Positions 1,581-48,999 of a stretch of DNA of 64,000 bases are shown in pieces. A program made the translations under genes and the position numbers. Origin of the DNA: a bacterium (lineage in GTDB: Bacteria > Patescibacteriota > Saccharimonadia > CAILAD01 > BJGX01); assembly GCA_029778565.1 (NCBI GenBank), contig JAKOQC010000187.1, positions 2,615-66,614 on the forward strand, given 5' to 3'. Position 1 is the first letter of the stretch, and the number at the start of each line of letters is the position of its first letter. Under the pieces are notes generated by a model. That model saw only the letters and a list, made by a program, of their open reading frames with translations, had not been told where the DNA came from and made no database searches.

Positions 1581-2125
1581 ATCGTTTAGCTCAAACTTAT
1601 CAGACTAAAGTACGTGGTGATTTGCAAACTCAGTTGGGGCTCGATAATGTTCACCAAATACCAAAAATTGAAAAAATTGTGGTAAATGTTGGTGTTGGTA
1701 AAGCTGTTGCAGATAGTAAGTATCTCGATATGGCAGTCGAAAACCTTACCGCTATTACTGGTCAAAAACCAGTAATTACCAAGGCTCGTCACTCAATCGC
1801 ATCATTTAAACTTCGCGAAGGTATGCCAATTGGTGCCAAAGTAACGTTGCGTGGTGAGTATATGTGGAACTTCTTAGACCGACTCATTTCTATTGTTATT
1901 CCTCGAATGCGCGATTTTCGTGGTTTATCAGTAAAAAGTTTCGATCCTCAAGGCAATTACAGTATTGGTTTTTCAGATCAGACAGTATTTCCAGAATTAA
2001 GCCAAGACGATAATGCCGCAGGAGGAAGTTTGCAAGTAACAATAACAACAAGTGCAAAAAACCCAGAACAAGCTGAAGCACTCTTACGGGGATTGGGTTT
2101 CCCACTTGAGAAAGGAACAAAGTAA
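1577..2125 (+). CDS. rplE: 50S ribosomal protein L5
   Basis: 182 aa; conserved L5 core ([23 protein letters not shown]...). Confidence 0.95.
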
Positions 2126-2394
2126 TGGCCAGAAAAGCACTTATAGAACGAGAAAAGAAAAGAGAAGCTATGGCTGCAAAATATGCTGCCAAGCGAGCTC
2201 AATTAAAAGCCGAAGGCGACTTAGAAGGTTTGGCCAAATTGCCACGCAATGCTAACCCTATTCGTCACCACAATCGCTGTGCACAAACTGGACGTAGCAA
2301 GGGTTATATACGAGACTTTGGCCTTTCTCGCATTACGTTCCGTGAGCAAGCCAGCAAGGGTAATATACCAGGTTTAACGAAGTCGAGTTGGTAG
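2125..2394 (+). CDS. rpsN: 30S ribosomal protein S14 (long, non-zinc form)
   Basis: 89 aa ending ...[11 protein letters not shown]; no CxxC motif; position between L5 and S8. Confidence 0.9.
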
Positions 2395-2404
2395 GAGAAT
2401 TATT

Positions 2405-2794
2405 ATGATGACAACAGATCCAATTGCAGATATGCTTACTCGAATCCGAAACGGATTGCATTCAGGTAAAGAAACCGTCTTGGTACCAAGTTCTAAGATG
2501 AAGCTTTCGATTGCCCAAATTCTTCTAAACGCTGGTTATATTTCTGATGTAAAAGAAGTTAAACAAGACAACTTCACTTACATTGCTCTTAAGCTAAATC
2601 AGCCCAAAAAACCAATCACTAAGTTACAACGAGTTTCTAAACCTGGGCGACGTATGTATACACCAAAAAGTGAAATTCCATCAGTCTTAGGTGGTCGTGG
2701 TATTGTTATTCTTTCTACCCCAGCTGGAGTTTTAACCGGTAGTGATGCACGCAAAAAAGGCGTGGGTGGCGAATTAATTTGTAAGGTATGGTAG
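2405..2794 (+). CDS. rpsH: 30S ribosomal protein S8
   Basis: 129 aa; MTTDPIADMLTRIRNG... S8 signature. Confidence 0.9.
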   Translation: MMTTDPIADMLTRIRNGLHSGKETVLVPSSKMKLSIAQILLNAGYISDVKEVKQDNFTYIALKLNQPKKPITKLQRVSKPGRRMYTPKSEIPSVLGGRGIVILSTPAGVLTGSDARKKGVGGELICKVW

Positions 2795-2798
2795 AGCT

Positions 2799-3362
2799 AT
2801 GAGTAGAATAGGCAAACAACCAATTGAATTACCAGAAAATGTTACTGTCACTATTGATGGTTTAAGTGTTAGTGTTGCTGGTCCTAAGGGCGAGCTAAAG
2901 CAAAAATTAATGAATGGTTTTGTAATTGAACAAAAAGAAACCCGTCTTGAACTAACGATTGCAGACAAAGAAAAAGAAGCCGAGCTTGGCCAGTATTATG
3001 GACTAATGCGCACACTGGTAGCTAATATGGTAGCCGGTGTTTCTGAAGGTTTTACTAAAGTATTAGAAGTAAATGGTGTTGGCTTTAGGGTAAACCTACA
3101 AGGTCAGAAACTCGAACTTAATCTTGGTTTTTCTCACCCGATTGTTTACACTGCACCAGAAGGAATAGAACTGGCAGTTGATCAAAACCAAAATACTATT
3201 ACTGTGAGTGGTATCGATAAACAACTTGTAGGTGAAGTTGCCGCTCAGATACGATCGTTTAAAAAGCCAGAACCATACAAAGGAAAAGGTATTAAATATC
3301 AGGGCGAGCACATTCGACGCAAAGCCGGTAAAGCTGCCGCCAAAGCCGGAGCAGGAGCATAA
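2799..3362 (+). CDS. rplF: 50S ribosomal protein L6
   Basis: 187 aa; MSRIGKQPIELPENVTVTIDG... two-domain L6. Confidence 0.9.
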   Translation: MSRIGKQPIELPENVTVTIDGLSVSVAGPKGELKQKLMNGFVIEQKETRLELTIADKEKEAELGQYYGLMRTLVANMVAGVSEGFTKVLEVNGVGFRVNLQGQKLELNLGFSHPIVYTAPEGIELAVDQNQNTITVSGIDKQLVGEVAAQIRSFKKPEPYKGKGIKYQGEHIRRKAGKAAAKAGAGA

Positions 3363-3366
3363 TACT

Positions 3367-3726
3367 ATGAATAAACAAGTTTTACTTCAAGACAGACGCA
3401 GACGAGCGAGAAACAGAGTACGCTCAACTATTAGCGGTACAAGCAAACGACCTCGTTTGAATGTGAGTATTAGCCTGGTTAATGTTACTGCTCAACTGAT
3501 AGATGATACTAAGGGTGTAACATTACTATCAGCTACATCAATAGGAAAAAAAGAAATGCACGGTAAAAATTTAACCGAAAAAGCCCACTTAGTAGCTGAG
3601 CTTATTGCAAAAGATGCTAAGACGAAAAAAATTAGTGAAGTTGTTTTTGACAGGGGCCCACGCAGTTATCATGGTCGAGTACAAGCATTTGCCGAAACAG
3701 CCCGTAAAAACGGATTAAAATTTTAA
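3367..3726 (+). CDS. rplR: 50S ribosomal protein L18
   Basis: The track ORF starts at 3232 and overlaps rplF. The internal ATG at 3367 gives MNKQVLLQDRRRRARNRVRS..., the usual L18 N-terminus. This start is 5 nt after the rplF stop. Confidence 0.85.
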   Translation: MNKQVLLQDRRRRARNRVRSTISGTSKRPRLNVSISLVNVTAQLIDDTKGVTLLSATSIGKKEMHGKNLTEKAHLVAELIAKDAKTKKISEVVFDRGPRSYHGRVQAFAETARKNGLKF

Positions 3727-20348: not shown

Positions 20349-20383
20349 GGTTCCAATCTTGTGGTATCTGGCGTCTCATTGGG

Positions 20384-20459
20384 GCGTTAGTACAGCGGCA
20401 GTACAGGTAGCTTTATCACCTGCCAGACAGGAGTTCGAATCTCCTACGCTCCACCAAGT
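20384..20459 (+). tRNA. non-canonical tRNA-like gene (76 nt, CCA encoded, aberrant anticodon arm)
   Basis: Acceptor GGGGCGT/ACGCTCC. D-arm GTAC-agcggca-GTAC. T-arm AGGAG-ttcgaat-CTCCT. The only good anticodon-region helix (CAGGT/ACCTG) encloses a 9-nt loop AGCTTTATC and collides with the D-stem, so no 7-nt loop with a standard anticodon can be drawn. Confidence 0.5.
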
Positions 20460-39681: not shown

Positions 39682-39752
39682 CGTGGGACCCGCTTAAAAA
39701 TGCCGGGGCTAGTACCACAAAGGAGATAATTATGGCAGAAGCAAAAAAAGCA
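39682..39752 (+). repeat. leader repeat 1 (about 71 nt; includes SD and first 7 codons of rplK)
   Basis: CGTGGGACCCGCTTAAAAATGCCGGGGCTAGTACCACAAAGGAGATAATTATGGCAGAAGCAAAAAAAGC. Confidence 0.75.
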
Positions 39753-40166
39753 ATCGCAAAAGTAAAGATGGTATTACCAGGTGGAGGTGCAACACCTGCG
39801 CCACCAGTTGGCTCTAACTTGGGTCAACACGGGGTAAACATGATGGATTTTATTAATCCATTTAATGAGCAAACTCAAGATAGAAAAGGTCAACCAACAC
39901 CAGTATTGGTAACAATTTACGAAGATAAGTCGATGACCTTTGTTATTAAAGGTACCCCTGCAAAAGTACTTATTAAAGAAGCCCTAAAGCTGAAAAAAGG
40001 TTCTGGTGTACCGAATAAAGAAAAGGTCGGTAAACTAACCGATGCACAACTTACCCAAATTGCCGAAGCAAAAATGGCCGATCTTAATGCCAACGACATT
40101 GAAGCCGCCAAGAAGATCATTGCTGGCACCGCTCGTGCGATGGGTGTAGAAGTAGAGAAAAAATAA
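39732..40166 (+). CDS. rplK: 50S ribosomal protein L11
   Basis: 144 aa; PGGGATPAPPVGSNLGQHGVN. Confidence 0.9.
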   Translation: MAEAKKAIAKVKMVLPGGGATPAPPVGSNLGQHGVNMMDFINPFNEQTQDRKGQPTPVLVTIYEDKSMTFVIKGTPAKVLIKEALKLKKGSGVPNKEKVGKLTDAQLTQIAEAKMADLNANDIEAAKKIIAGTARAMGVEVEKK

Positions 40167-40175
40167 TCTAACAAG

Positions 40176-40246
40176 CGTGGGACCCTCCTAAAAAGGTTGG
40201 GGTTAGTACCACAAAGGAGATAGTTATGGCAGAAGCAAAAAAAGCT
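40176..40246 (+). repeat. leader repeat 2 (about 71 nt; includes SD and first 7 codons of rplA)
   Basis: CGTGGGACCCTCCTAAAAAGGTTGGGGTTAGTACCACAAAGGAGATAGTTATGGCAGAAGCAAAAAAAGC. About 85% identical to repeat 1. Confidence 0.75.
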
Positions 40247-41167
40247 AAAACCGAAGAAGTAGCTGAAAAAGCTGAAGACAAAAAAGTTATAGCAAAGTCA
40301 AAAGTTAAACCAACCGAGGTATTGGCCAAGGCTGGCAAACGCAGTAAAAAAGTGCAAGAAGCAGAAGCAGAAAAAGCAGCCAAAGAAGCAAAAAAGGCTG
40401 AAGGTAAAGTAAAAACTGCTGCCGAAGCCGAAAAACCAAAGCCAGTACAAAAACCTCACGTGGTACGGTACAGCAAGAATCAAAAAGCTGCTCGTGAGCT
40501 ATTAGAAAAAGATAAACTCTATTCTCTTAACGAAGCTGTAGAGCTATTACCAAAGCTTTCTAAAGTAAAATTTGACGCCACTGCTGAGTTGCACGCAACG
40601 CTTAACATTGACCCTAAACAAGCCGACCAAATGGTACGGGCTGCTGCTGCTCTGCCAGCAGGTACTGGTAAGACTGTACGCGTTGCCGTACTGGCCGGCG
40701 ATAAAGATTCTGCCGACGCTAAAAAAGCTGGTGCCGATATAAGCGATGCCGCTGAGCTACTCAGTGCTATTAGTAAAGGCAAATTCGACTTTGATATTTT
40801 AGTAGCCACACCAGAAAAAATGCCAGAACTTGGTCGCTATGCTAAAACTCTCGGACCAAAAGGCTTAATGCCATCACCAAAAAGCAATACAGTTACCGCC
40901 AAGCCGGCCGAAGTAATTGCCGAAATTAAAAAAGGTCGAGTAGAGCTGAAGAATGATCCGAACGGAATTGTACATGTAAGCTTTGGTAAACTAAGTTTTT
41001 CTAGCAAAGACTTGCTTGCCAATCTTAAATCTGTTTTGGCAGCCTTGCAAAATGCTCGCCCAACCGGTGTAAAAGGTGTCTATATTAAATCTCTCTTCGT
41101 TACTTCATCTATGAGTCCATCAATTAAACTTGATGTTACTGAGGCTATTAAAGAAGCCAAAAGCTAA
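40226..41167 (+). CDS. rplA: 50S ribosomal protein L1 with about 80-aa K/A/E-rich N-terminal extension
   Basis: 313 aa. The L1 core begins near ...ARELLEKDKLYSLNEAVELLPKL. The N-terminus is low-complexity (AEKAEDKKVIAKSKVKPTE...). Confidence 0.85.
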   Translation: MAEAKKAKTEEVAEKAEDKKVIAKSKVKPTEVLAKAGKRSKKVQEAEAEKAAKEAKKAEGKVKTAAEAEKPKPVQKPHVVRYSKNQKAARELLEKDKLYSLNEAVELLPKLSKVKFDATAELHATLNIDPKQADQMVRAAAALPAGTGKTVRVAVLAGDKDSADAKKAGADISDAAELLSAISKGKFDFDILVATPEKMPELGRYAKTLGPKGLMPSPKSNTVTAKPAEVIAEIKKGRVELKNDPNGIVHVSFGKLSFSSKDLLANLKSVLAALQNARPTGVKGVYIKSLFVTSSMSPSIKLDVTEAIKEAKS

Positions 41168-41187
41168 GAGTAAAAATAATACAAAAA

Positions 41188-41218
41188 AACAGCCCAATCT
41201 TTGGGGCTGTTTTTTTGT
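41188..41218 (+). terminator. rho-independent terminator after rplA
   Basis: ACAGCCC-aatcttt-GGGGCTGT plus T7. Confidence 0.55.
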
Positions 41219-41286
41219 TATGCTTGGTAGTTACTTGTTTTGTTTGCTAAGCTAGTAAAGACCTCGTACCTTACCAAGGAGCCAAA

Positions 41287-41904
41287 ATGGCTATCGAAGC
41301 AGGAATTTTTAGTAATGGTTCATGTTTTGATCAACGATATATTCCAGATTTTGAACAGCTAGCAAGACTTGTTGCACATATGAAAGGTATTGGCCTTAGA
41401 ATTGTTCTTACATCAGGGTCGTTCGACTTCTTTCATCTTGGTCACGCCTTTTATCTAGAGAAGGCACGGGAACAGGGTGATGTGTTGATCGTTGGTGTTG
41501 ATAGTGATGCAAAAATCGCCCGCAAGAAGGGACCAAATCGGCCACTATATCCTCAGGATGAGCGTTTGCAAATTCTTGTTCGTCAACGATCTGTTGATAT
41601 TGTTACTCTTAAAGAAGCTACTGACGAAAAATGGGTATTGATTAAAACGCTTAAGCCTGATGTTTTGGTTGCTACACAAGAAACATACACCGATGCTGAG
41701 ATAGAAGAACTTCAGCAATATTGTGGCGAGGTAAAGGTTTTGGAGCCTCAAGCCCAAACTTCTACTAGTAAGCGACTGCGAGATCTTAATCTGGAGCTTG
41801 CGAGTGACATTGGTGAGCGTCTTGCAGAGCGAATCCCTGGCTTGCTCCAAGAAGTCCTCGACGAGGCAGTTGGCCGTCATGACAAGCCAAAGGTGAATCC
41901 ATGA
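41287..41904 (+). CDS. cytidylyltransferase-like nucleotidyltransferase (RfaE domain II / TagD family, HxGH)
   Basis: GSFDFFHLGH motif and IVGVDSDAKIARKKGPNRPLYPQDER. Confidence 0.6.
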   Translation: MAIEAGIFSNGSCFDQRYIPDFEQLARLVAHMKGIGLRIVLTSGSFDFFHLGHAFYLEKAREQGDVLIVGVDSDAKIARKKGPNRPLYPQDERLQILVRQRSVDIVTLKEATDEKWVLIKTLKPDVLVATQETYTDAEIEELQQYCGEVKVLEPQAQTSTSKRLRDLNLELASDIGERLAERIPGLLQEVLDEAVGRHDKPKVNP

Positions 41905-42740
41905 GTACTGTATTGGTTCTATATATGCCAGTTATTCATGAAACCTACCTAGAGTTAATTGATAGCCAACGTTGGGATGAGATATTTATTATCGAAAATA
42001 GTTTGGCAATTGAGCTTGTAGATAGTCTCCGCAAAGACCTTCGTGCTCTTAATGCAGAGACAGTAAAGTCGATATTGGTCCGTCGCGATGGTGCTCGACC
42101 TGCATTTGTAGTGTCTGGGGCCACGGCAATTTTTGATCAATCGACACAATTTGTTTTGCCCGATGAAGATGTAAGTCATGCTTTTGCAAAGAGATTTTTA
42201 CATGGCAGAGAAGTAGAGTTTAGAAATGTGTTTTTGCGATACGATAGAAAACGAACTACCGAACCGTTTGAGCCAAACCCAGATGAGGTTATCACAACCG
42301 ATCAGTTTGCTCGAGACATGATAGCTCGTTGTGATGAACTGGCAACCAAAAGCCCCGACTGGTGGCGTCAAATTGGTGGTCTTATTGTTAAAGAAGGCAA
42401 GATCATAGAAGAGCTACAAATGTTTAACGAGGCCAAACCGTTTGGTATGGTACCATACGAACTTGGTGATCCACGTAGTAACTTTAAGAAGGGTCTTCAT
42501 CCAGACTTGACCCTGGTATTGCATGTCGAACAGGGCCTGGTAAGTGAGGCTGCCCGACTGGGGATTGCTCTCGAAGGCGCGGATCTCTATGTGAGTACTT
42601 TTCCGTGCCCTTGGTGCGCCACAGCTGTGGCCTATAGTGGTATTGGTAGAGTCTATTACCGTGATGGCTATGCTATGCTCGATGGAGAAGAGATTCTCAA
42701 GAGCAACGGTGTCGAGCTCATTCGCGTTGTGGAGCCATAA
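41901..42740 (+). CDS. CMP/dCMP-deaminase-domain protein with about 140-aa unassigned N-terminal domain
   Basis: The C-terminal half carries the zinc motifs HVEQ and PCPWC. 4-nt overlap with the upstream gene. Confidence 0.6.
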   Translation: MSTVLVLYMPVIHETYLELIDSQRWDEIFIIENSLAIELVDSLRKDLRALNAETVKSILVRRDGARPAFVVSGATAIFDQSTQFVLPDEDVSHAFAKRFLHGREVEFRNVFLRYDRKRTTEPFEPNPDEVITTDQFARDMIARCDELATKSPDWWRQIGGLIVKEGKIIEELQMFNEAKPFGMVPYELGDPRSNFKKGLHPDLTLVLHVEQGLVSEAARLGIALEGADLYVSTFPCPWCATAVAYSGIGRVYYRDGYAMLDGEEILKSNGVELIRVVEP

Positions 42741-42751
42741 AAATACCCCGA

Positions 42752-43735
42752 TCAATCGAATTGATCGGGGCTTTTGTTATCTTGAGGTACAGAACTCATT
42801 TTGAATCTAACTGGTGTGTGATTGGGATTATCGACATCACCAACTTTAATGTGCGCATGCAGATGTGCAACGCTGCCACCAGTGCGGCTCATGTCGCCAA
42901 AACGCATACCAAGGGCACCATAGTCTAGGCCGTAACTATGTATTACCCAAGAAATCATCAGTCCAAAGTCGGTTTTGGCGGCTAGACTAAGTTCATCGAA
43001 ATTTTCAACATGACTTTTTGGAATAAGCAGTAAATCTTCAATAGTGCCCTTATAAGGGTTATCATTTTTAGTTACTATCCAGTGTGGTGATTGATTTGCA
43101 ATTGGGTTCTGATGGTACCAAGCCAGCCACTGTGGACAGAAAGGGCAGATACCATCATTCAGAATCTCTTCCATATACCCGGCTTGGTTGTCGAACCGGG
43201 CAGCTGGTAAGTATAGGAGCGGCGGTGAGGGTGGATATTCACTTGCCGGGCTGTAACGTAGAAATACATACTCCAGACCACTTACGTCATCTTTTTGGAT
43301 ATTACCAGCTTCTGTAACAATCCAGTCGCTGGGCGAAGTAAACGGAAAAACGGCATCACCGTTTTCAATATGAGTATTTACCAGAGTTAGCTCAATAGCG
43401 TCTACCACACCAGCATCAAATGCTGCCTGGTAGATTTGCTGCCCACCAATAATGAAAATCGGTTTGTTCCAGTCAGAGGCAACTTCAAGTGCTTTCTCGA
43501 AGTTACTGACCGTCCAAACATCTTCTGGTGCTGTAGCAAGAGAACTTGAGACCACAATATTTACTCTATTAGGCAAAGGTTTGCCAATACTTTCATAGGT
43601 CTTGCGACCCATAATAACAACATTACCAGTCGTTAACTCTTTAAACCTCTTAAGATCGGCAGGTATATGCCAAGGAATCTGTCCGTCTTTACCGATTACG
43701 CGATTACGGCTGCGGGCCGCGATTACGGTAATCAT
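42752..43735 (-). CDS. folA: dihydrofolate reductase fused to a C-terminal HIT (histidine-triad) domain
   Basis: Residues 1-160 form a typical DHFR (MITVIAARSRNRVIGKDGQIPWHIPADLKRFKELT...). Residues 170-327 carry CPFC and the triad HLHAHI. Confidence 0.75.
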   Translation of the reverse strand: MITVIAARSRNRVIGKDGQIPWHIPADLKRFKELTTGNVVIMGRKTYESIGKPLPNRVNIVVSSSLATAPEDVWTVSNFEKALEVASDWNKPIFIIGGQQIYQAAFDAGVVDAIELTLVNTHIENGDAVFPFTSPSDWIVTEAGNIQKDDVSGLEYVFLRYSPASEYPPSPPLLYLPAARFDNQAGYMEEILNDGICPFCPQWLAWYHQNPIANQSPHWIVTKNDNPYKGTIEDLLLIPKSHVENFDELSLAAKTDFGLMISWVIHSYGLDYGALGMRFGDMSRTGGSVAHLHAHIKVGDVDNPNHTPVRFKMSSVPQDNKSPDQFD

Positions 43736-44691
43736 GGCAACACCGGAATTTCGCTAATTGGCTCATGCGGATCATAATCGGAGAGTACAAACAGCTCTCC
43801 ATGTAGTTTATGAATCGCATCGGAATCGTGTGGCACAGGTGGGCTCCATTCGAAGACATCGGGGCCGAAATGTATAGTCGGTAAACGTCGAGGTTCGCGC
43901 TCTAACATCTGCTCGACATACTTCATTTGCCCTTCGTAAATATGTGCATCGACGATGTAGTGAATATATTCGCCTGGCTCGAAGCCAGTAATATCACAAA
44001 GCAGTAGCATGAGAGCAGCATATTGCACCAAGTTAGATGGCACACCAATCGGCACATCACCGCTACGTTGCTTCATGTGCAGATTGAGCTTGCCATTGAG
44101 AATTCGCACTTGCACCCAGCCATGACACGGGGCAATAGTAGCTTTGTTAACTCTACCAGAATCACGCGCTAGCCCAGCACTATGCCAGGGGCTAACCACA
44201 TGTGTTCTGTCATTTGGAAATTCACTAATTTGCTGTACTAAATGGGCAAACTGATTATATGGGGTACCATCAAAGTCTGGCCAATCATGAAACATTGGTC
44301 CATAACTGGCAGGACCAATATCACCGGTGGGCAAGCCACGCTTGCTGCACTTGGCCTCGGTACCCCAATCACCCCACCAGGTAACACCCCAGCGTTCGAA
44401 ATCTTCGATGGTATGTACACCATTTATCATAGCGCCAAGCTCGTTGATAGCTTTGCGCCAAAAAGCAATTTTACGTTCGGTAATAAGTGGAAATCCATCA
44501 CGCAAAATATCAAAGCGCATTTGTACACCAAGCAGTGTTTTAGCACGCTCACCTTGGCGGGTAACCTCGCTCCACTGACCTCGATCCATAATTGCTGCTA
44601 AGACATCTCTGTATTGTGTATTTGGTTCACGTTCTTCATAGGGCAAATAATCGAGCTTTAGGTATCCCATGCAAGAAACCCTTTCTGTCAA
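43732..44691 (-). CDS. thyA: thymidylate synthase ThyA-family enzyme (divergent, 319 aa)
   Basis: Catalytic APCH. QRSGDVPIGVPSNLVQYA corresponds to QRSCDVFLGLPFNIASYA in E. coli ThyA, with the Asn retained. DAHIY. Several insertions. 4-nt overlap with folA. Confidence 0.75.
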   Translation of the reverse strand: MTERVSCMGYLKLDYLPYEEREPNTQYRDVLAAIMDRGQWSEVTRQGERAKTLLGVQMRFDILRDGFPLITERKIAFWRKAINELGAMINGVHTIEDFERWGVTWWGDWGTEAKCSKRGLPTGDIGPASYGPMFHDWPDFDGTPYNQFAHLVQQISEFPNDRTHVVSPWHSAGLARDSGRVNKATIAPCHGWVQVRILNGKLNLHMKQRSGDVPIGVPSNLVQYAALMLLLCDITGFEPGEYIHYIVDAHIYEGQMKYVEQMLEREPRRLPTIHFGPDVFEWSPPVPHDSDAIHKLHGELFVLSDYDPHEPISEIPVLP

Positions 44692-44786
44692 AGACCACCT
44701 CTGTAGGTCTGCTCGATTGTACTATATAGACCACAAACCTGTAAAGTGATAGAATTGTGCCAGCACCTACTAAAATGTGAGGGAAC

Positions 44787-45269
44787 ATGACCGATACTCA
44801 AATAGTTCCAGTGGTCTCGTGGGATGAAATTCAAAAATTCTTGCCAAGAATTCAAATGGGTGTAAGTGGTGAAGCAATAATGCCGGTTTTCGTACAAGAT
44901 CTTACATTGAGCTTTGATCTAGATAGACAAGAATTTGTACTAAGTCGGGATAGGTTTGGTTATTTGCCGGCTGATGAAGTTCGTCGTAATGACATTCATC
45001 AGCTTGAAGTAGGATTAACAAAATTTCTGATTCAGTATTACCAAGGCGAGCTCGAAGCTGCTGTACGGGCTGCAACATATCAAATGTTTTTGCAGCTTTG
45101 TAAGCAGATTCCTTACCCTCAAGGCTGCCAATGTGGAAATTATCCCCATGGCCAGGCACTCGACTGTCACGTGCATATGGATAATCCGTGCCACTTCTTT
45201 GGCGACTTCAACTTCACCTGCACCTGCGACGAGCAGAAAGAGGCCAAAAATGCCGCACATTCATCCTGA
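44787..45269 (+). CDS. hypothetical protein with C-terminal Cys/His cluster
   Basis: 160 aa with C-x-C...C-H-x-H...C-H...C-x-C near the C-terminus. No family recognised. Confidence 0.4.
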   Translation: MTDTQIVPVVSWDEIQKFLPRIQMGVSGEAIMPVFVQDLTLSFDLDRQEFVLSRDRFGYLPADEVRRNDIHQLEVGLTKFLIQYYQGELEAAVRAATYQMFLQLCKQIPYPQGCQCGNYPHGQALDCHVHMDNPCHFFGDFNFTCTCDEQKEAKNAAHSS

Positions 45270-45747
45270 GCTTGATTTTTGCGCCGTAACTTACATTGTG
45301 AATGATAACAAAGTGTTGCTATGTCATCACATCAAACTTGGGGTCTGGGTTCCGCCAGGTGGGCATGTTGAACCTGGTGAAACCATTGATGCTGCCCGTG
45401 ACCGAGAAATCAAAGAAGAGACTGGGCTCGATGTCACCATCATCGGGCCAAAACCAGGCTTTGTAATTGCAGGTATGGAGTCGCTAGTGGCACCGCGTTA
45501 CACTGATGTGCACCCAATTGCTTGCGAGTTTCCTAATCACCGCCACCAGGCATTTGTGTACTTTGGCACAGTCGATGTGCGTAACGAAGTTTTGCAAGAA
45601 GACGAGCACCATGAACTACGCTGGTTTTCTATGCACGATCTCGAGCGCTATCATGACCCAGAAGCGCCGATTCCAGACAATGTTTCTTGGTATGCAAGCG
45701 TTGCCCTCGAAGAGCTGGGGTACCATGGGGCGACGAGGATTTTTTAG
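45250..45747 (+). CDS. NUDIX hydrolase
   Basis: Nudix box GGHVEPGETIDAARDREIKEETGL. Start taken at MPHIHPE (45250). Confidence 0.75.
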   Translation: MPHIHPELDFCAVTYIVNDNKVLLCHHIKLGVWVPPGGHVEPGETIDAARDREIKEETGLDVTIIGPKPGFVIAGMESLVAPRYTDVHPIACEFPNHRHQAFVYFGTVDVRNEVLQEDEHHELRWFSMHDLERYHDPEAPIPDNVSWYASVALEELGYHGATRIF

Positions 45748-45787
45748 CCAGATAGGCAACTATCTGGTTTTTTTATATAATAAAGCT

Positions 45788-47023
45788 ATGAATCAAATTC
45801 AAAAACTTACGGACACCGAAAACGAGCGGCAAAAAAGTACTCTAAATTTAATTGCGTCAGAAAATTATCCAAGCCCCAAGGCTTTGACTCTCCTTGGCTC
45901 TATTTGGAATGATAAGTATGCCGAGGGTTATCCTGGTAAACGCTATTACGCAGGTAATGTAAATGCCGACAGTCTCGAAGAATTTGTTCAGGCTAAGGCA
46001 CTAGAAGTGTTTAATGCCCGAGAAGATTATGGTGTAAATGTACAGGTACTCTCTGGTAGTCCTGCGAATGCAATGGTGTATTTTACTGTTTTAGAACCTG
46101 GTGATACAGTACTTAGCCTTAATTTGAATAGTGGTGGACATCTTAGTCATCTGCATACCACTAGCAGCTACGTAAAATTCTTTAAGCACTTTACCTATAG
46201 CTTGCGTGGAGGTAAGTTACACGAAGCTGAGTTCGAACAAGCCCTAAAAGAGCATAAACCGCGTTTGGTAGTGATTGGTTATAGTAGCTATCCAGCCCAA
46301 TACGAATTTACACGACTGTGCCAGTTGGCTCATGCATATGGGGCGCTTGTTTTGGCCGACATTAGCCATATCGCTGGGCTCGTAGCTGCCGGTCAGCACT
46401 CTTCGCCATTTCATAGTGGTGCTAGCGGAGCAGATTTTGTAACTACTACTACTCACAAAACTTTGCGAGGACCTCGTTCTGCACTAGTGTTTGCCAAAAA
46501 AGAGTATATGCCAGCAGTAAATAAAACTGTATTTCCCGGAACAAGTGGGGGTCCGCACCTTAATCAAATAGCTGCAGTTGGCCAGAGTCTACTAGAGGTA
46601 TTGGGCGAGGAAACTTATCCCGATAAAACCCCATTTAATGAATATATACAAGATGTTTTAAAAAATGCCAAAGCCCTCGAGTCTGGACTGAAACAGGCTG
46701 GTGTGCATGTAACTATACCGACTGCAACCCACTTGGTATTGGCTAAATTACCAGAAGAAGTAGATAGCCTTACCTTGCAAAACGATCTCGAAGAGGTGGG
46801 AATTATTACTAATCGCAATGCAATACCTGGTGATGAAAAATCTCCCTGGCGACCAGGCGGTCTGCGACTTGGTAGTGCTGCACTTACTTCTAGAGGAATG
46901 AAGCATGATGACTTTTTAATGCTTGGTGAAGCTATAGGGAGCTTTATTATGGGTAAAAAAGATAAGGCAGAACTTAGCATTGTTACAAAAGACCTACAGA
47001 AAAGCCTGAAGTGGTATTATTAA
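45788..47023 (+). CDS. glyA: serine hydroxymethyltransferase
   Basis: 411 aa; YAEGYPGKRYYAG and TTTTHKTLRGPR (PLP lysine). Start at 45788. Confidence 0.9.
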   Translation: MNQIQKLTDTENERQKSTLNLIASENYPSPKALTLLGSIWNDKYAEGYPGKRYYAGNVNADSLEEFVQAKALEVFNAREDYGVNVQVLSGSPANAMVYFTVLEPGDTVLSLNLNSGGHLSHLHTTSSYVKFFKHFTYSLRGGKLHEAEFEQALKEHKPRLVVIGYSSYPAQYEFTRLCQLAHAYGALVLADISHIAGLVAAGQHSSPFHSGASGADFVTTTTHKTLRGPRSALVFAKKEYMPAVNKTVFPGTSGGPHLNQIAAVGQSLLEVLGEETYPDKTPFNEYIQDVLKNAKALESGLKQAGVHVTIPTATHLVLAKLPEEVDSLTLQNDLEEVGIITNRNAIPGDEKSPWRPGGLRLGSAALTSRGMKHDDFLMLGEAIGSFIMGKKDKAELSIVTKDLQKSLKWYY

Positions 47024-47207
47024 TTGAATAATACCCCAAAAGCTGCTATAAATAAGATTGCACCTTTAGTATAAACACACAGAGGAGAGTGCAATGCAGT
47101 GGAGATACATGTGGAAAGAAGTTGTCTGCGATCTCTTTGCTGGTGAATGGAAGTTGTGGAGTTGGCGATAAGCCACGTCACGAATTCGGCTCACGAGGGA
47201 GGAGTTA

Positions 47208-47624
47208 ATGAGCACAAAAGGCTCTGTATACGTAGCAGGTAAAGTTGGTGCTGGCACTGATGGAGTAAAGTACCTTCTCGCAGACTTGCGTAATCTTGGG
47301 TATGAAGTAACGTACGATTGGACCGATGCTTCTGGGGTTAAAAAGCCCTACCTTGCAAATGCAGCGAGGAATCGACCGTTTGCCGAAAATATGCTGCAGG
47401 GTGCTCACGACTGTGACATCTTTATTTTACTGGTGGCAGATAACCAACTCGGTGCACTTATCGAGCTTGGTATTGCCCTTGGCTCTTCATTAGAACGAAA
47501 AAATTTTCGGGCCTTTATTGTAACCGAAGGCATGGAGACATATCGCGAATCGATATTCTATTGCCTCGATTCCGTCACAATCGTTCATTCTCTAGATGAG
47601 TTAATGGCTTTGCTCAAAGATTAG
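47208..47624 (+). CDS. nucleoside 2-deoxyribosyltransferase-like (NDT/SLOG-fold) protein
   Basis: 138 aa; VYVAGKV...CDIFILLVADNQLGALIELGIALG fits the NDT family. Confidence 0.5.
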   Translation: MSTKGSVYVAGKVGAGTDGVKYLLADLRNLGYEVTYDWTDASGVKKPYLANAARNRPFAENMLQGAHDCDIFILLVADNQLGALIELGIALGSSLERKNFRAFIVTEGMETYRESIFYCLDSVTIVHSLDELMALLKD

Positions 47625-47640
47625 TCTTTGAGTTTTTTTA

Positions 47641-47669
47641 TTGACTAAATCTCTAATATTTGCTATTAT
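47641..47669 (+). promoter_or_regulatory. sigma70-like promoter TTGACT-N17-TATTAT ahead of the rplJ leader
   Basis: Hexamers read directly. Confidence 0.4.
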
Positions 47670-47828
47670 TACTACTGATTACCAAAGACTGTAGCTGTGT
47701 AAAACACTTAATTTGCTGCAAGAGGTTACGATCAATATAGATTGTTTACAAACCAGAGGTCTTTGGCATGTGTCCAAAGATTTTTTGTTTGGTAATCAAG
47801 TACATTAACTAAATAAGGTGTTATACAT
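47670..47828 (+). promoter_or_regulatory. rplJ leader with attenuator-like hairpin (TCTTTGG-catgtgt-CCAAAGA-T6)
   Basis: 160-nt untranslated leader with a strong hairpin plus U-run about 45 nt before rplJ. Consistent with L10-leader autoregulation. Confidence 0.35.
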
Positions 47829-48365
47829 ATGGCAAAAACACGAGAGCAGAAAGAACAGGCTGTTAGCTCGCTAACAGAGGCTTTTTCTGCAAGTAAACTT
47901 GCTGTGTTAACAGATTACCGTGGCTTGAATGTACCAGAAATTTCTGCGTTGCGTGCCAACTTGCGCGAAGCAGGCATTCCATTTACGGTAGCCAAAAACA
48001 CACTGGTAAAAATAGCGCTTGTCAATGCCGATAAGAAGGTAGAAGACACCTCAGTCCTAGTAGGTCCGGTAGCAATTGCTTTTGGCCCTGACGAAGTTGA
48101 GGCCGCACGAATCGTTTTTGAATATGCCAAAACGAATCCTGCCCTAGAAATACTTGGTGCCATCGACGAAAGCGGTAACGTATTAAGTACCGAAGACGTT
48201 GTAGCCCTAGCCAAACTACCAAGTCGCGAACAATTGCTAGCACAAGTAGTTGGTACAATTGCCGCTCCACTAAGTGGATTTGTACGAGTGCTCAATGGTA
48301 ATGTTTCGGGCTTAGTCTATGCATTACAGGCTGTGGCAGATAAAAAAGCACAAGAAGCTAGTTAA
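47829..48365 (+). CDS. rplJ: 50S ribosomal protein L10
   Basis: 178 aa. Confidence 0.9.
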   Translation: MAKTREQKEQAVSSLTEAFSASKLAVLTDYRGLNVPEISALRANLREAGIPFTVAKNTLVKIALVNADKKVEDTSVLVGPVAIAFGPDEVEAARIVFEYAKTNPALEILGAIDESGNVLSTEDVVALAKLPSREQLLAQVVGTIAAPLSGFVRVLNGNVSGLVYALQAVADKKAQEAS

Positions 48366-48396
48366 AAATTATTAAGATACTCTAAGGAGAATAAAA

Positions 48397-48870
48397 ATGG
48401 CAGAAGAAACTGCAAAACCAGAAGTAAAAGAAGAAGCACCAGCTGTAGAAGCTGCTGCAGAAACAACTGAAGACAAAAAAGAAGTACCTGCTAAGTTTAA
48501 AAGCTTGGTAGACGAAATTGATAAACTCAGCGTGCTCGATCTTTCAGAATTCGTTAGTGTTTTAGAAGATCACTATGGCGTTAGCGCTGCTGCTCCAGTA
48601 GCTGTTGCTGCTGCAGGTGCTGCTGCTGGCGGTGGCGAAGAAGCTGCCGAAGAAGGCAAGAGTAGCTATAACATTATGCTAACTGCAGCTGGTGATAAGA
48701 AGATTGATGTAATTAAGGCTGTTCGAGAAATCTCTGGCCTTGGTTTAGCCGAAAGTAAAGAAGTAGTTGACGGTGCTCCTAAGATGGTAAAAGAAGATGT
48801 TCCAGCCGAAGAAGCTGAAGCAGCCAAAAAGACCCTCGAAGAAGCCGGTGCTACTGTAGAACTTCAATAA
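48397..48870 (+). CDS. rplL: 50S ribosomal protein L7/L12 with about 30-aa acidic N-terminal extension
   Basis: 157 aa. C-terminal domain [24 protein letters not shown]. Confidence 0.9.
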
Positions 48871-48889
48871 TTTCATTCATTTGAATGCA

Positions 48890-48918
48890 AAAAGACCCTA
48901 AGAAGGGTCTTTTTGTTT
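48890..48918 (+). terminator. rho-independent terminator after rplL
   Basis: AAGACCCT-aaga-AGGGTCTT plus T-run. Confidence 0.65.
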
Positions 48919-48999
48919 GGCTTTTGTTTTATGTTTTGTTACAATAAAGGCAAGTAATTTTGAGTAATTTTAGTAAAAATACAAAAAGGGGCTTTAAAA

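Follow-up and report, generated by a model that had tools for sequence, protein, structure and literature searches.

A dihydrofolate reductase fused to a histidine triad domain, and the five-gene thymidylate module to which it belongs in Patescibacteria and Solirubrobacterales

What role could a histidine triad (HIT) domain play when it is joined to a dihydrofolate reductase (DHFR)? The question is raised by one open reading frame (ORF) in a 64,000-nucleotide stretch from a bacterium of the Saccharimonadia (Patescibacteriota; GenBank assembly GCA_029778565.1, contig JAKOQC010000187.1, positions 2,615 to 66,614), hereafter the window, where a complete DHFR continues into a HIT domain beside the thymidylate synthase gene thyA. 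Thymidylate synthesis is among the best-charted pathways and is a major drug target: ThyA converts deoxyuridylate (dUMP) and methylene-tetrahydrofolate to thymidylate (dTMP) and dihydrofolate, DHFR regenerates tetrahydrofolate, and deoxycytidylate (dCMP) deaminase supplies dUMP. In the bacteria described here two extra enzymes without an assigned step, the HIT protein and an HldC-like nucleotidyltransferase, are tied to ThyA, DHFR and dCMP deaminase across much of the Patescibacteria and, among soil bacteria, the order Solirubrobacterales. The explanation that we prefer, with moderate confidence, is that the fused protein is bifunctional, a DHFR joined to a covalently acting HIT enzyme that would operate in the thymidylate line. 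The ORF and its parts, in window coordinates, are the following:

42752..43735, reverse strand: complete DHFR-HIT ORF, ATG start, 327 residues plus stop, without internal stop (homologue search)
43253..43735, reverse strand: DHFR domain, residues 1-161 (Pfam PF00186, 168.8 bits; NCBIfam DHFR models)
43220..43252, reverse strand: proline-rich linker SPASEYPPSPP, residues 162-172, 11 residues (translation)
42755..43219, reverse strand: HIT domain, residues 173-327, 155 residues (alignment, family profile, Pfam, AlphaFold2 model, Foldseek)
43136..43147, reverse strand: CPFC, C197-C200, two predicted zinc ligands (translation, conservation)
43010..43012, reverse strand: H242, invariant, predicted third zinc ligand (conservation in alignments)
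42848..42865, reverse strand: histidine triad HLHAHI, H291-I296 (translation), where H293 is the predicted nucleophile and H291 completes the predicted set of four zinc ligands

A first-pass annotation of the same DNA had proposed a complete DHFR of about 160 residues, followed in the same ORF by a domain of about 150 residues carrying a CxxC motif and the sequence HLHAHI, and our analysis agrees with it on each of these points. The DHFR_1 profile (PF00186) matched residues 1-161 with 168.8 bits (E 1e-49; cut-off 25) over 157 of its 159 positions, the NCBIfam type 3 DHFR and Dfr models gave the same call, and both motifs of the 155-residue second domain were checked by translation. W22, D27, F31, R57, GG97-98 and T117 are conserved columns among the homologues; together with R44, we take these residues to be the catalytic and NADPH-binding positions of E. 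coli FolA. The 4-nt overlap with thyA was also found as described, since the thyA stop and the DHFR-HIT start share the sequence ATGA. The two are separate ORFs, thyA occupying 43732..44691 on the reverse strand, and the window protein is thus not a bifunctional DHFR-thymidylate synthase (DHFR-TS) with both enzymes in one polypeptide. It resembles the DHFR-TS of protozoa and plants in that DHFR forms part of a multidomain protein with another enzyme of the thymidylate cycle and is closely coupled to thymidylate synthase; it differs in that the synthase is here a separate gene coupled just by the 4-nt overlap, that DHFR is joined instead to a HIT nucleotide enzyme to which no role in this cycle has been ascribed, and that the order is DHFR-HIT.

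The junction near 43.2 kb, where a stop codon between the domains had been named as the thing to look for, contained none. A Logan assembly of run SRR15686344 (locus L008) was 100% identical to window positions 39839-48999 (9161 nt); this is an independent assembly that may derive from the same reads, and so not necessarily independent data. A second Saccharibacteria metagenome-assembled genome (L009) retained the fused ORF and its frame at 82% DNA identity and with 116 gaps over 8.8 kb. The search for the same fusion in other genomes covered 5.8 billion proteins. It yielded about 90 homologues over the full length, with 32-100% identity and at least 90% query coverage, from Saccharibacteria and Parcubacteria metagenomes, and in these the frame and linker were kept. 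That DHFR and HIT are truly fused is, in our judgement, practically certain.

The assignment of the second domain to the HIT superfamily needed more than the window sequence itself. Against Pfam HIT (PF01230) the window protein scored 19.1 bits as a whole and 20.8 bits as the C-terminal domain alone (E 6e-4 to 2e-3), under the cut-off of 21.5, and a single-sequence search of the PDB with this domain gave a best E of just 0.17. As these scores are borderline, membership rests on the family profile, on the PF01230 matches of other members and on the predicted fold, the profile and the model both being built from a 45-sequence alignment of the domain (A1). The profile retrieved about 55 HIT-superfamily sequences from the PDB at E<=1, the best being 3oj7 with E 7e-9, and the matches included Hint, Fhit, GalT, Ap4A phosphorylase and aprataxin (Ap4A, diadenosine tetraphosphate). 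PF01230 was matched by 39 of the 45 members and DcpS_C by 35. The AlphaFold2 model had a predicted local distance difference test score (pLDDT) of 94.5 and a predicted TM-score (pTM) of 0.88, and Foldseek aligned it with probability 1.0 to ecHinT, HINT1/2, the zinc-containing HIT protein 3r6f and Rv2613c, with TM-scores of 0.6-0.77 on target length and 0.45-0.53 on query length. By profile and predicted fold, the HIT identity given in the first-pass annotation is secure, even if the expected match to HIT profiles held for the family and most of its members and fell below the cut-off for the window sequence alone.

The motif H-φ-H-φ-H/Q-φ-φ of the superfamily is present as HLHAHIK (residues 291-297). 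Among 86 full-length homologues C197, F199, C200, W219, H242, R278, H291 and H293 were invariant and G280 was conserved in 99%; in the 45-sequence alignment the zinc residues, R278, H293 and G280 were all invariant, and the triad and CxxC were retained in the primary HIT domain of every locus scanned. The first two histidines of the triad were the same in all 86 homologues; at the third position (residue 295) about 80% of members have H, the other 20% or so having Q or S. The CxxC had been annotated as a zinc knuckle; the motif is there, and it does not appear to be a free-standing knuckle, as C197 and C200 join H242 and H291, likewise invariant, in the four-ligand pattern of a CxxC, a central-strand histidine and the first triad histidine. 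We infer that these four residues bind zinc, in what we take to be a site equivalent to that of GalT and the zinc-containing HIT proteins, H293 presumably being the nucleophile. F199 of the CPFC motif stands in the alignment where the nucleoside pocket motif of Hint has its Phe, and the domain carries a family-specific N-terminal helix and C-terminal strand (PVRFKMSS) in the model and the alignment. An invariant nucleophile, invariant zinc ligands and an invariant R278 form the pattern expected of an active enzyme, and the HIT domain is very probably catalytically active.

How widespread is this family? A search with the C-terminal domain alone in a word index returned 12 proteins; its size became apparent when 1.84 billion cluster representatives were searched exhaustively with the profile, 3651 proteins matching at E<=1e-3 and at least 300 at E<=1e-30. 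About one third of the best 150 representatives were proteins of 300-340 residues with a C-terminal HIT domain, and most of the others were stand-alone proteins of about 150 residues. Stand-alone genes 45-52% identical to the window domain lie directly downstream of a separate folA of 165 codons with an overlap of 4-8 nt, and those whose context was examined follow folA or thyA. The linker of the window protein stands where such split folA-HIT pairs have their stop/start overlap (a GTGA junction in L001). The DHFR-HIT fusion is present in a Saccharibacteria clade, in Parcubacteria (L006, L007 and L092) and in a contig of 71% GC (L005). On a rough neighbour-joining tree of 238 HIT domains, fused members are scattered among split ones. 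Fitch parsimony requires at least 45 changes, a figure raised by errors in the tree and possibly in gene calling. Fusion and fission at an overlapping stop and start evidently happen easily and repeatedly. A metagenome cluster representative, P0166, is a HIT-ThyA fusion of 464 residues with the triad HLHGQ, and constitutes a second, independent fusion tying the family to the thymidylate cycle. Repeated fusion of HIT to DHFR, with one fusion to ThyA, is classic 'Rosetta stone' evidence of membership in a pathway.

Variations on this theme were also seen. In L054 and L073 thyA is flanked by HIT genes on both sides, and in four loci a second HIT-like paralogue directly follows the first (L018, 5436-6146; L025, 5448-6035; L033, 5466-6038; L048, 5509-6036). 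P0171, P0214, P0261 and P0268 are tandem HIT-HIT or second-copy proteins. The triad is lost in several of the second copies, which recalls the pseudo-dimer of GalT with its one active site.

Proteins of this family are labelled 'dihydrofolate reductase' or 'hypothetical' in public databases. Automatic naming at JGI has given 'dihydrofolate reductase/diadenosine tetraphosphate (Ap4A) HIT family hydrolase' for some fused members, and the shorter labels 'Ap4A HIT family hydrolase' and 'ATP adenylyltransferase' also occur there. The statement that a DHFR-HIT protein is not a described combination therefore holds in part: the literature searched in full text contained no paper on the fusion, on the HIT subfamily or on the gene module considered next, although the fusion is common in sequence databases and some members had been named automatically at JGI. 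We are dealing with known folds and known chemistry whose combination is undescribed and widespread, and is evidently favoured by selection.

The genomic setting of the family involves the following genes of the window:

43732..44691, reverse strand: thyA (Pfam PF00303, Thymidylat_synt, 201 bits)
41901..42740, forward strand: long dCMP deaminase, 279 residues, convergent with DHFR-HIT, 11 nt between the stops
41287..41904, forward strand: HldC/RfaE-II/TagD/ECT-like nucleotidyltransferase, 205 residues (Pfam CTP_transf_like), 4-nt overlap with the deaminase start

We scanned one genome per GTDB species (130 relatives) and kept 80 loci, the search patterns being derived from a 13-sequence alignment, which skews the set towards Saccharibacteria-like and Solirubrobacterales sequences. 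ORFs were defined from stop to stop in this survey, and at high GC such ORFs show spurious overlaps. The loci came from Saccharibacteria, Parcubacteria, Paceibacterota, Kaiserbacteria and Vogelbacteria and, unexpectedly, from many Solirubrobacterales, which are Actinomycetota with genomes of 3-4.5 Mb and about 70% GC (Baekduia, Conexibacter, Patulibacter, Solirubrobacteraceae). When five protein families were mapped on 88 loci, ThyA, DHFR, HIT, the CTP_transf_like nucleotidyltransferase and the long (about 280 residues) dCMP deaminase all fell within 5 kb in 74, in Saccharibacteria, Parcubacteria and Solirubrobacterales alike, and most of the 14 incomplete loci were truncated contigs. With the deaminase as the starting point, three of three long contigs held all five genes; their HIT genes had been called 'no Pfam', yet matched the family profile with E 1e-45. 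The arrangement varies. In the window ThyA, DHFR and HIT, in that order, face the nucleotidyltransferase and the deaminase; in many Solirubrobacterales all five genes run in the same direction; and in some members of the candidate phyla radiation (CPR) ThyA is followed by one or two HIT genes, with DHFR beyond the nucleotidyltransferase. The HIT gene is a fixed member of a five-gene thymidylate cluster common to Patescibacteria and some soil actinobacteria.

ThyA of the window has, in our own reading of its motifs, the PCH catalytic cysteine, the RSGD motif and what is presumably the dUMP-specifying Asn. The C-terminal half of the deaminase has the dCMP deaminase fold, with HxE and PCxxC motifs and Foldseek matches to the dCMP deaminases of S-TIM5, S. 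mutans, T4 and human. Its N-terminal part of about 125 residues is an alpha/beta domain with invariant Y8, P10, H13 and Y16 ('Y-x-P-V-x-H-x-G-Y') and F111-L-R113; a profile of this domain found no relatives in the PDB or Pfam, and Foldseek with the full model gave matches to the deaminase domain only. This long form of the deaminase is widespread in CPR and Solirubrobacterales. The idea that its N-terminal domain is a degenerate HIGH-motif nucleotidyltransferase was unsupported, as hhalign gave a probability of 2.7% and aligned only the H-x-G-H/Y motif. The nucleotidyltransferase proper, translationally coupled to the long deaminase and conserved with it in nearly every locus, matched PDB 3elb (E 1e-17) and NCBIfam rfaE_dom_II (108 bits, below cut-off), and is nearest to the RfaE domain II/HldC heptose-1-phosphate adenylyltransferases, ethanolamine-phosphate cytidylyltransferase (ECT) and TagD. 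Enzymes of the HldC/ECT/TagD type make NDP-X (X, the acceptor) from an NTP and a phosphorylated acceptor.

To which branch of the superfamily does the module HIT belong? At the positions that define Hint we found Gly287 (Gly or Ala in the family) where HINT1 has Q106, a Gln that precedes the triad by four residues, and Asn223 in place of the ribose-binding Asp (D43). The Rv2613c segment compared below was verified against the PDB. The same Gln, common to Hint and Fhit, is Ser147 in the Ap4A phosphorylase Rv2613c (PDB 3wo5 is its S147Q mutant), and Asn223 sits in a strand 'W-x-V-T-x-N-x-x-P-Y' that resembles 'LNLYPYNPGH' of Rv2613c. Arg278 lies in the phosphate-binding loop. The window domain is a single repeat with HxHxH, and so lacks both the HxHxQ and the two HIT repeats of GalT and Ap4A phosphorylase II. 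Among its relatives HxHxQ occurs in about 20% and a few are tandem HIT-HIT proteins with a degenerate second half, so the family straddles branches; the third triad His is, as far as is known, strictly kept in Hint, and Q at this position is typical of the transferase/phosphorylase branch. Judged by these residues, no known HIT branch fits the thymidylate-module family. Moreover, L006 encodes an ordinary HIT protein of 122 residues elsewhere that the family profile does not match at E<=1, and the module HIT is a specialised paralogue.

Three comparisons help to place it. The best sequence and structure matches are zinc-containing Hint-like proteins (E. cuniculi 3r6f, E. histolytica 3oj7, ecHinT 3n1s), which have the CxxC...H...HxHxH order and the overall fold in common with our family; the family differs from them by its extra N-terminal helix and C-terminal strand, by Gly/Ala for Gln and Asn for Asp, by the invariant Arg278 and the variable third triad residue, and by its tie to the thymidylate module. 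Rv2613c-type Ap4A phosphorylases, or 'ATP adenylyltransferases' (3ano, 3wo5), likewise have a small HIT domain with HxHxH, in which the conserved His is preceded by an 'N-x-x-P-Y' strand, and a small residue at the Gln position (Ser147 as against Gly/Ala); here the profile-level similarity is just E 1.5e-4, the aligned part of Rv2613c is without the CxxC zinc site and its N-terminal region is another one. Rv2613c presumably belongs to a phosphatidylinositol operon, unlike the context of DHFR-HIT. By this analogy a phosphorylase activity of the fused protein may be taken as a lead only. In worms and flies the Nit-Fhit 'Rosetta stone' protein (1ems, matched by the family profile) also joins to a metabolic enzyme a HIT enzyme that other lineages encode separately, and in both cases the fusion signals a functional link without making the chemistry plain. 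Its partner is a nitrilase rather than DHFR and it represents another HIT branch, and the DHFR-HIT family has the CxxC zinc site and is without the Fhit Gln.

Together, these data suggest the following model. The N-terminal FolA-type DHFR would recycle the dihydrofolate produced by ThyA, to whose gene its own is coupled in translation, and the C-terminal domain would be a zinc-stabilised HIT enzyme of a distinct subfamily dedicated to the thymidylate module. Catalysis is predicted to be covalent, as in HIT enzymes generally: H293 would attack the alpha-phosphate of a pyrophosphate-linked (deoxy)nucleotide to form a nucleotidyl-His293 intermediate, which water or phosphate would resolve, releasing a nucleoside monophosphate or, with phosphate as acceptor, a diphosphate. 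The invariant Arg278, the missing Hint/Fhit Gln and the H/Q/S third triad residue make a polyphosphate or an NDP-linked compound a likelier substrate than a phosphoramidate, and the same active-site features may allow phosphorolysis or transfer besides hydrolysis. The product would be a pyrimidine deoxynucleotide feeding the line from dCMP to dUMP to dTMP. Either dCMP or dUMP could be freed from a di- or triphosphate, or the HIT domain could resolve an NDP-linked intermediate made by the neighbouring HldC-like nucleotidyltransferase. The co-occurrence with ThyA, DHFR, deaminase and nucleotidyltransferase and the fusions to DHFR and ThyA point to the HIT domain carrying out a step of the pathway; that its role is tied to thymidylate or pyrimidine deoxynucleotide metabolism we consider probable, and that it specifically supplies dCMP or dUMP, rather doubtful. 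It has been reported that CPR folA genes complement an E. coli ΔfolA strain, and the second domain is not mentioned in that study (2025, PMC11974145).

We also propose, as a possibility only and one that we hold tentatively, that the HIT protein, the HldC-like enzyme and the N-terminal domain of the deaminase jointly run an undescribed pyrimidine deoxynucleotide route shared by Patescibacteria and Solirubrobacterales. It could take the form of a nucleotidyl shuttle in which one enzyme makes a pyrophosphate-linked intermediate and HIT resolves it through nucleotidyl-His293, by hydrolysis or phosphorolysis, supplying or processing the substrate of thymidylate synthase. If true, the five-gene cluster would be a new variant of the thymidylate pathway, its sharing between the two groups being probably the result of horizontal transfer. 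Patescibacteria are generally reported to be without de novo nucleotide synthesis (one such report is PMC11974145), and the substrate of the HIT enzyme, once identified, could fill a gap in the dCMP/dUMP supply of these organisms. It could also give a physiological role to a HIT subfamily in a superfamily whose cellular functions are often unclear, and improve annotation beyond 'dihydrofolate reductase' or 'hypothetical'. As there are cultivable genera in the Solirubrobacterales, the question is open to direct testing.

Several points weigh against the bifunctional, pathway-bound enzyme that we favour. Neighbourhood and fusion indicate a functional link and not which reaction is involved, and the HldC-like nucleotidyltransferase has no obvious substrate in thymidylate metabolism. 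A role in supplying dCMP would predict a HIT-deaminase fusion, and none was seen. L007 has a dUTPase and a NUDIX hydrolase beside the module and the window has a NUDIX hydrolase, so that HIT is not simply the missing dUTP/dCTP pyrophosphatase; the candidate role of a missing dUTPase/dCTPase is weakened accordingly. At the residue level, the correspondence between R278 and the Hint Asn shifts with the placement of a 2-residue gap, and the window's own C-terminal domain scores, as said, under the Pfam HIT cut-off.

The alternative that survives best, though we hold it to be unlikely, is that the domain is a general hydrolase or phosphorylase of Ap4A and diadenosine triphosphate (Ap3A) that clears the alarmone, its link with folA and thyA reflecting co-regulation with DNA synthesis rather than a step on the way to dTMP. 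The automatic names 'Ap4A HIT family hydrolase' and 'ATP adenylyltransferase' would fit, although these are labels at the level of a COG, and the stand-alone homologue P0121 has a weak NCBIfam match to an actinobacterial ATP adenylyltransferase (E 2e-4). The family profile matches Fhit and the Ap4A phosphorylase Rv2613c, and the loss of the Gln four residues before the triad is common to our family and Rv2613c. In E. coli K-12 folA lies 77 bp from apaH, which encodes an Ap4A hydrolase of unrelated fold (L089, NC_000913.3 49823..51222); the two genes are convergent and not operonic, and their adjacency may be chance. Repeated fusion to DHFR, together with a fusion to ThyA, is unexpected for a housekeeping alarmone hydrolase, a five-gene module is kept across two unrelated phyla, and L006 possesses its second, ordinary HIT elsewhere. 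These observations argue against the alarmone reading.

It is much less probable that the domain is mainly non-catalytic, either a dimerisation scaffold that docks DHFR on the ThyA dimer, with channelling as in DHFR-TS, or a nucleotide sensor. Both HIT proteins, as obligate dimers, and ThyA are dimeric, which would suit a scaffold, as would fusion of the domain to either DHFR or ThyA; and the triad-less second HIT copies in L018, L025, L033, L048 and P0171 mean that non-catalytic copies do exist in the module. The conservation described above speaks against such a function: H293, the zinc ligands, R278 and G280 are conserved across both alignments, and every scanned locus retains triad and CxxC in its primary HIT, as an active enzyme would be expected to.

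Slightly less probable still is a chance fusion of folA with an ordinary nucleoside phosphoramidase, or acyl-adenylate hydrolase, of the Hint type. Hint-like proteins do give the best matches in sequence and structure (ecHinT 3n1s, E. histolytica 3oj7/3oxk, HINT1/2), with TM-scores that are modest on query length (0.45-0.53). The change of Gln to Gly/Ala, the Asn for the ribose-binding Asp, the extra helix and strand, and Q or S as the third triad residue in about 20% of members depart from Hint, the family profile misses the ordinary HIT of L006, and the conserved module speaks against a chance fusion. Finally, an assembly or sequencing artefact, that is, a frameshift masking a stop between adjacent genes, has a negligible probability and was rejected: many relatives have separate folA and HIT genes overlapping by just 4-8 nt, so one indel would be enough to join them, but the sequence is identical in the independent assembly L008, about 90 fused homologues from many samples keep frame and linker, and L009 is fused while differing at 18% of nucleotides.

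Regarding its location, within window positions 39732..48870 the whole module lies between rplK-rplA, encoding L11 and L1, and an L10 leader (47664..47795) followed by rplJ-rplL, and so splits the usually contiguous ribosomal protein cluster (nusG-rplKA / rplJL). The same placement was observed in other CPR loci (L003, L004, L006, L090 and L092). The L1 protein of the window (40226..41167, forward strand, 313 residues) has a Lys/Ala/Glu-rich N-terminal extension of about 80 residues that is atypical for bacterial L1.

A phage or other mobile origin of the module was rejected, given its place within the nusG-rplKA/rplJL cluster, the lack of any tblastn match in 50,697 phage records and the lack of a relative in IMG/VR; PHROGs gave only weak matches, to families of unknown function. 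The module resembles the phage T4 set (td, frd, cd, gene 1, gene 56) in combining thymidylate synthase, DHFR and dCMP deaminase, and some loci add a dNMP kinase and a (d)NTP pyrophosphatase (NUDIX). It differs in that T4 is without HIT or an HldC-like enzyme, and no relatives of the HIT family were found in phage GenBank records or IMG/VR.

The accessory neighbours vary across loci and include NUDIX, serine hydroxymethyltransferase (SHMT), a dNMP-kinase-like protein, Tmk, ThyX, Dcd, dUTPase, FolC and FolD. Two are present in the window:

45250..45747, forward strand: NUDIX hydrolase, 165 residues as called in L008, an accessory gene that some loci have beside the module
45725..47023, forward strand: glyA (SHMT), a frequent neighbour

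SHMT supplies 5,10-methylene-tetrahydrofolate. Between thyA and the NUDIX gene, and overlapping the NUDIX ORF at its end, there is an ORF of 160 residues (44787..45269, forward strand) with a Cys/His-rich C-terminus (…CQCGNYPHGQALDCHVHMDNPCHFFGDFNFTCTCDEQ…); it gave no Pfam, NCBIfam or PHROG match, and is conserved in L008 and L009. A further ORF of 138 residues (47208..47624, forward strand) had a sub-threshold match to nucleoside 2-deoxyribosyltransferase (PF05014, E 0.01) and may be another deoxynucleotide-salvage gene beside the module.

Other loci presented peculiarities of their own. In L005 (71% GC) a ThyX protein of 527 residues, about twice the usual length and with Thy1 matches in two stretches, adjoins the ThyA/DHFR-HIT module (1886..3472, reverse strand), which means that ThyA and ThyX coexist there. 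In L003 a protein of 309 residues without Pfam match (2562..3491, forward strand) lies directly upstream of folA-HIT, at the usual position of thyA; it is not matched by the ThyA profile, and L003 also has ThyX, Dcd and Tmk. Outside the module, the window encodes a tRNA-Ile with the anticodon UAU (20381..20456, forward strand; ARAGORN), which is uncommon, as most bacteria read AUA by means of a lysidine-modified CAU tRNA.

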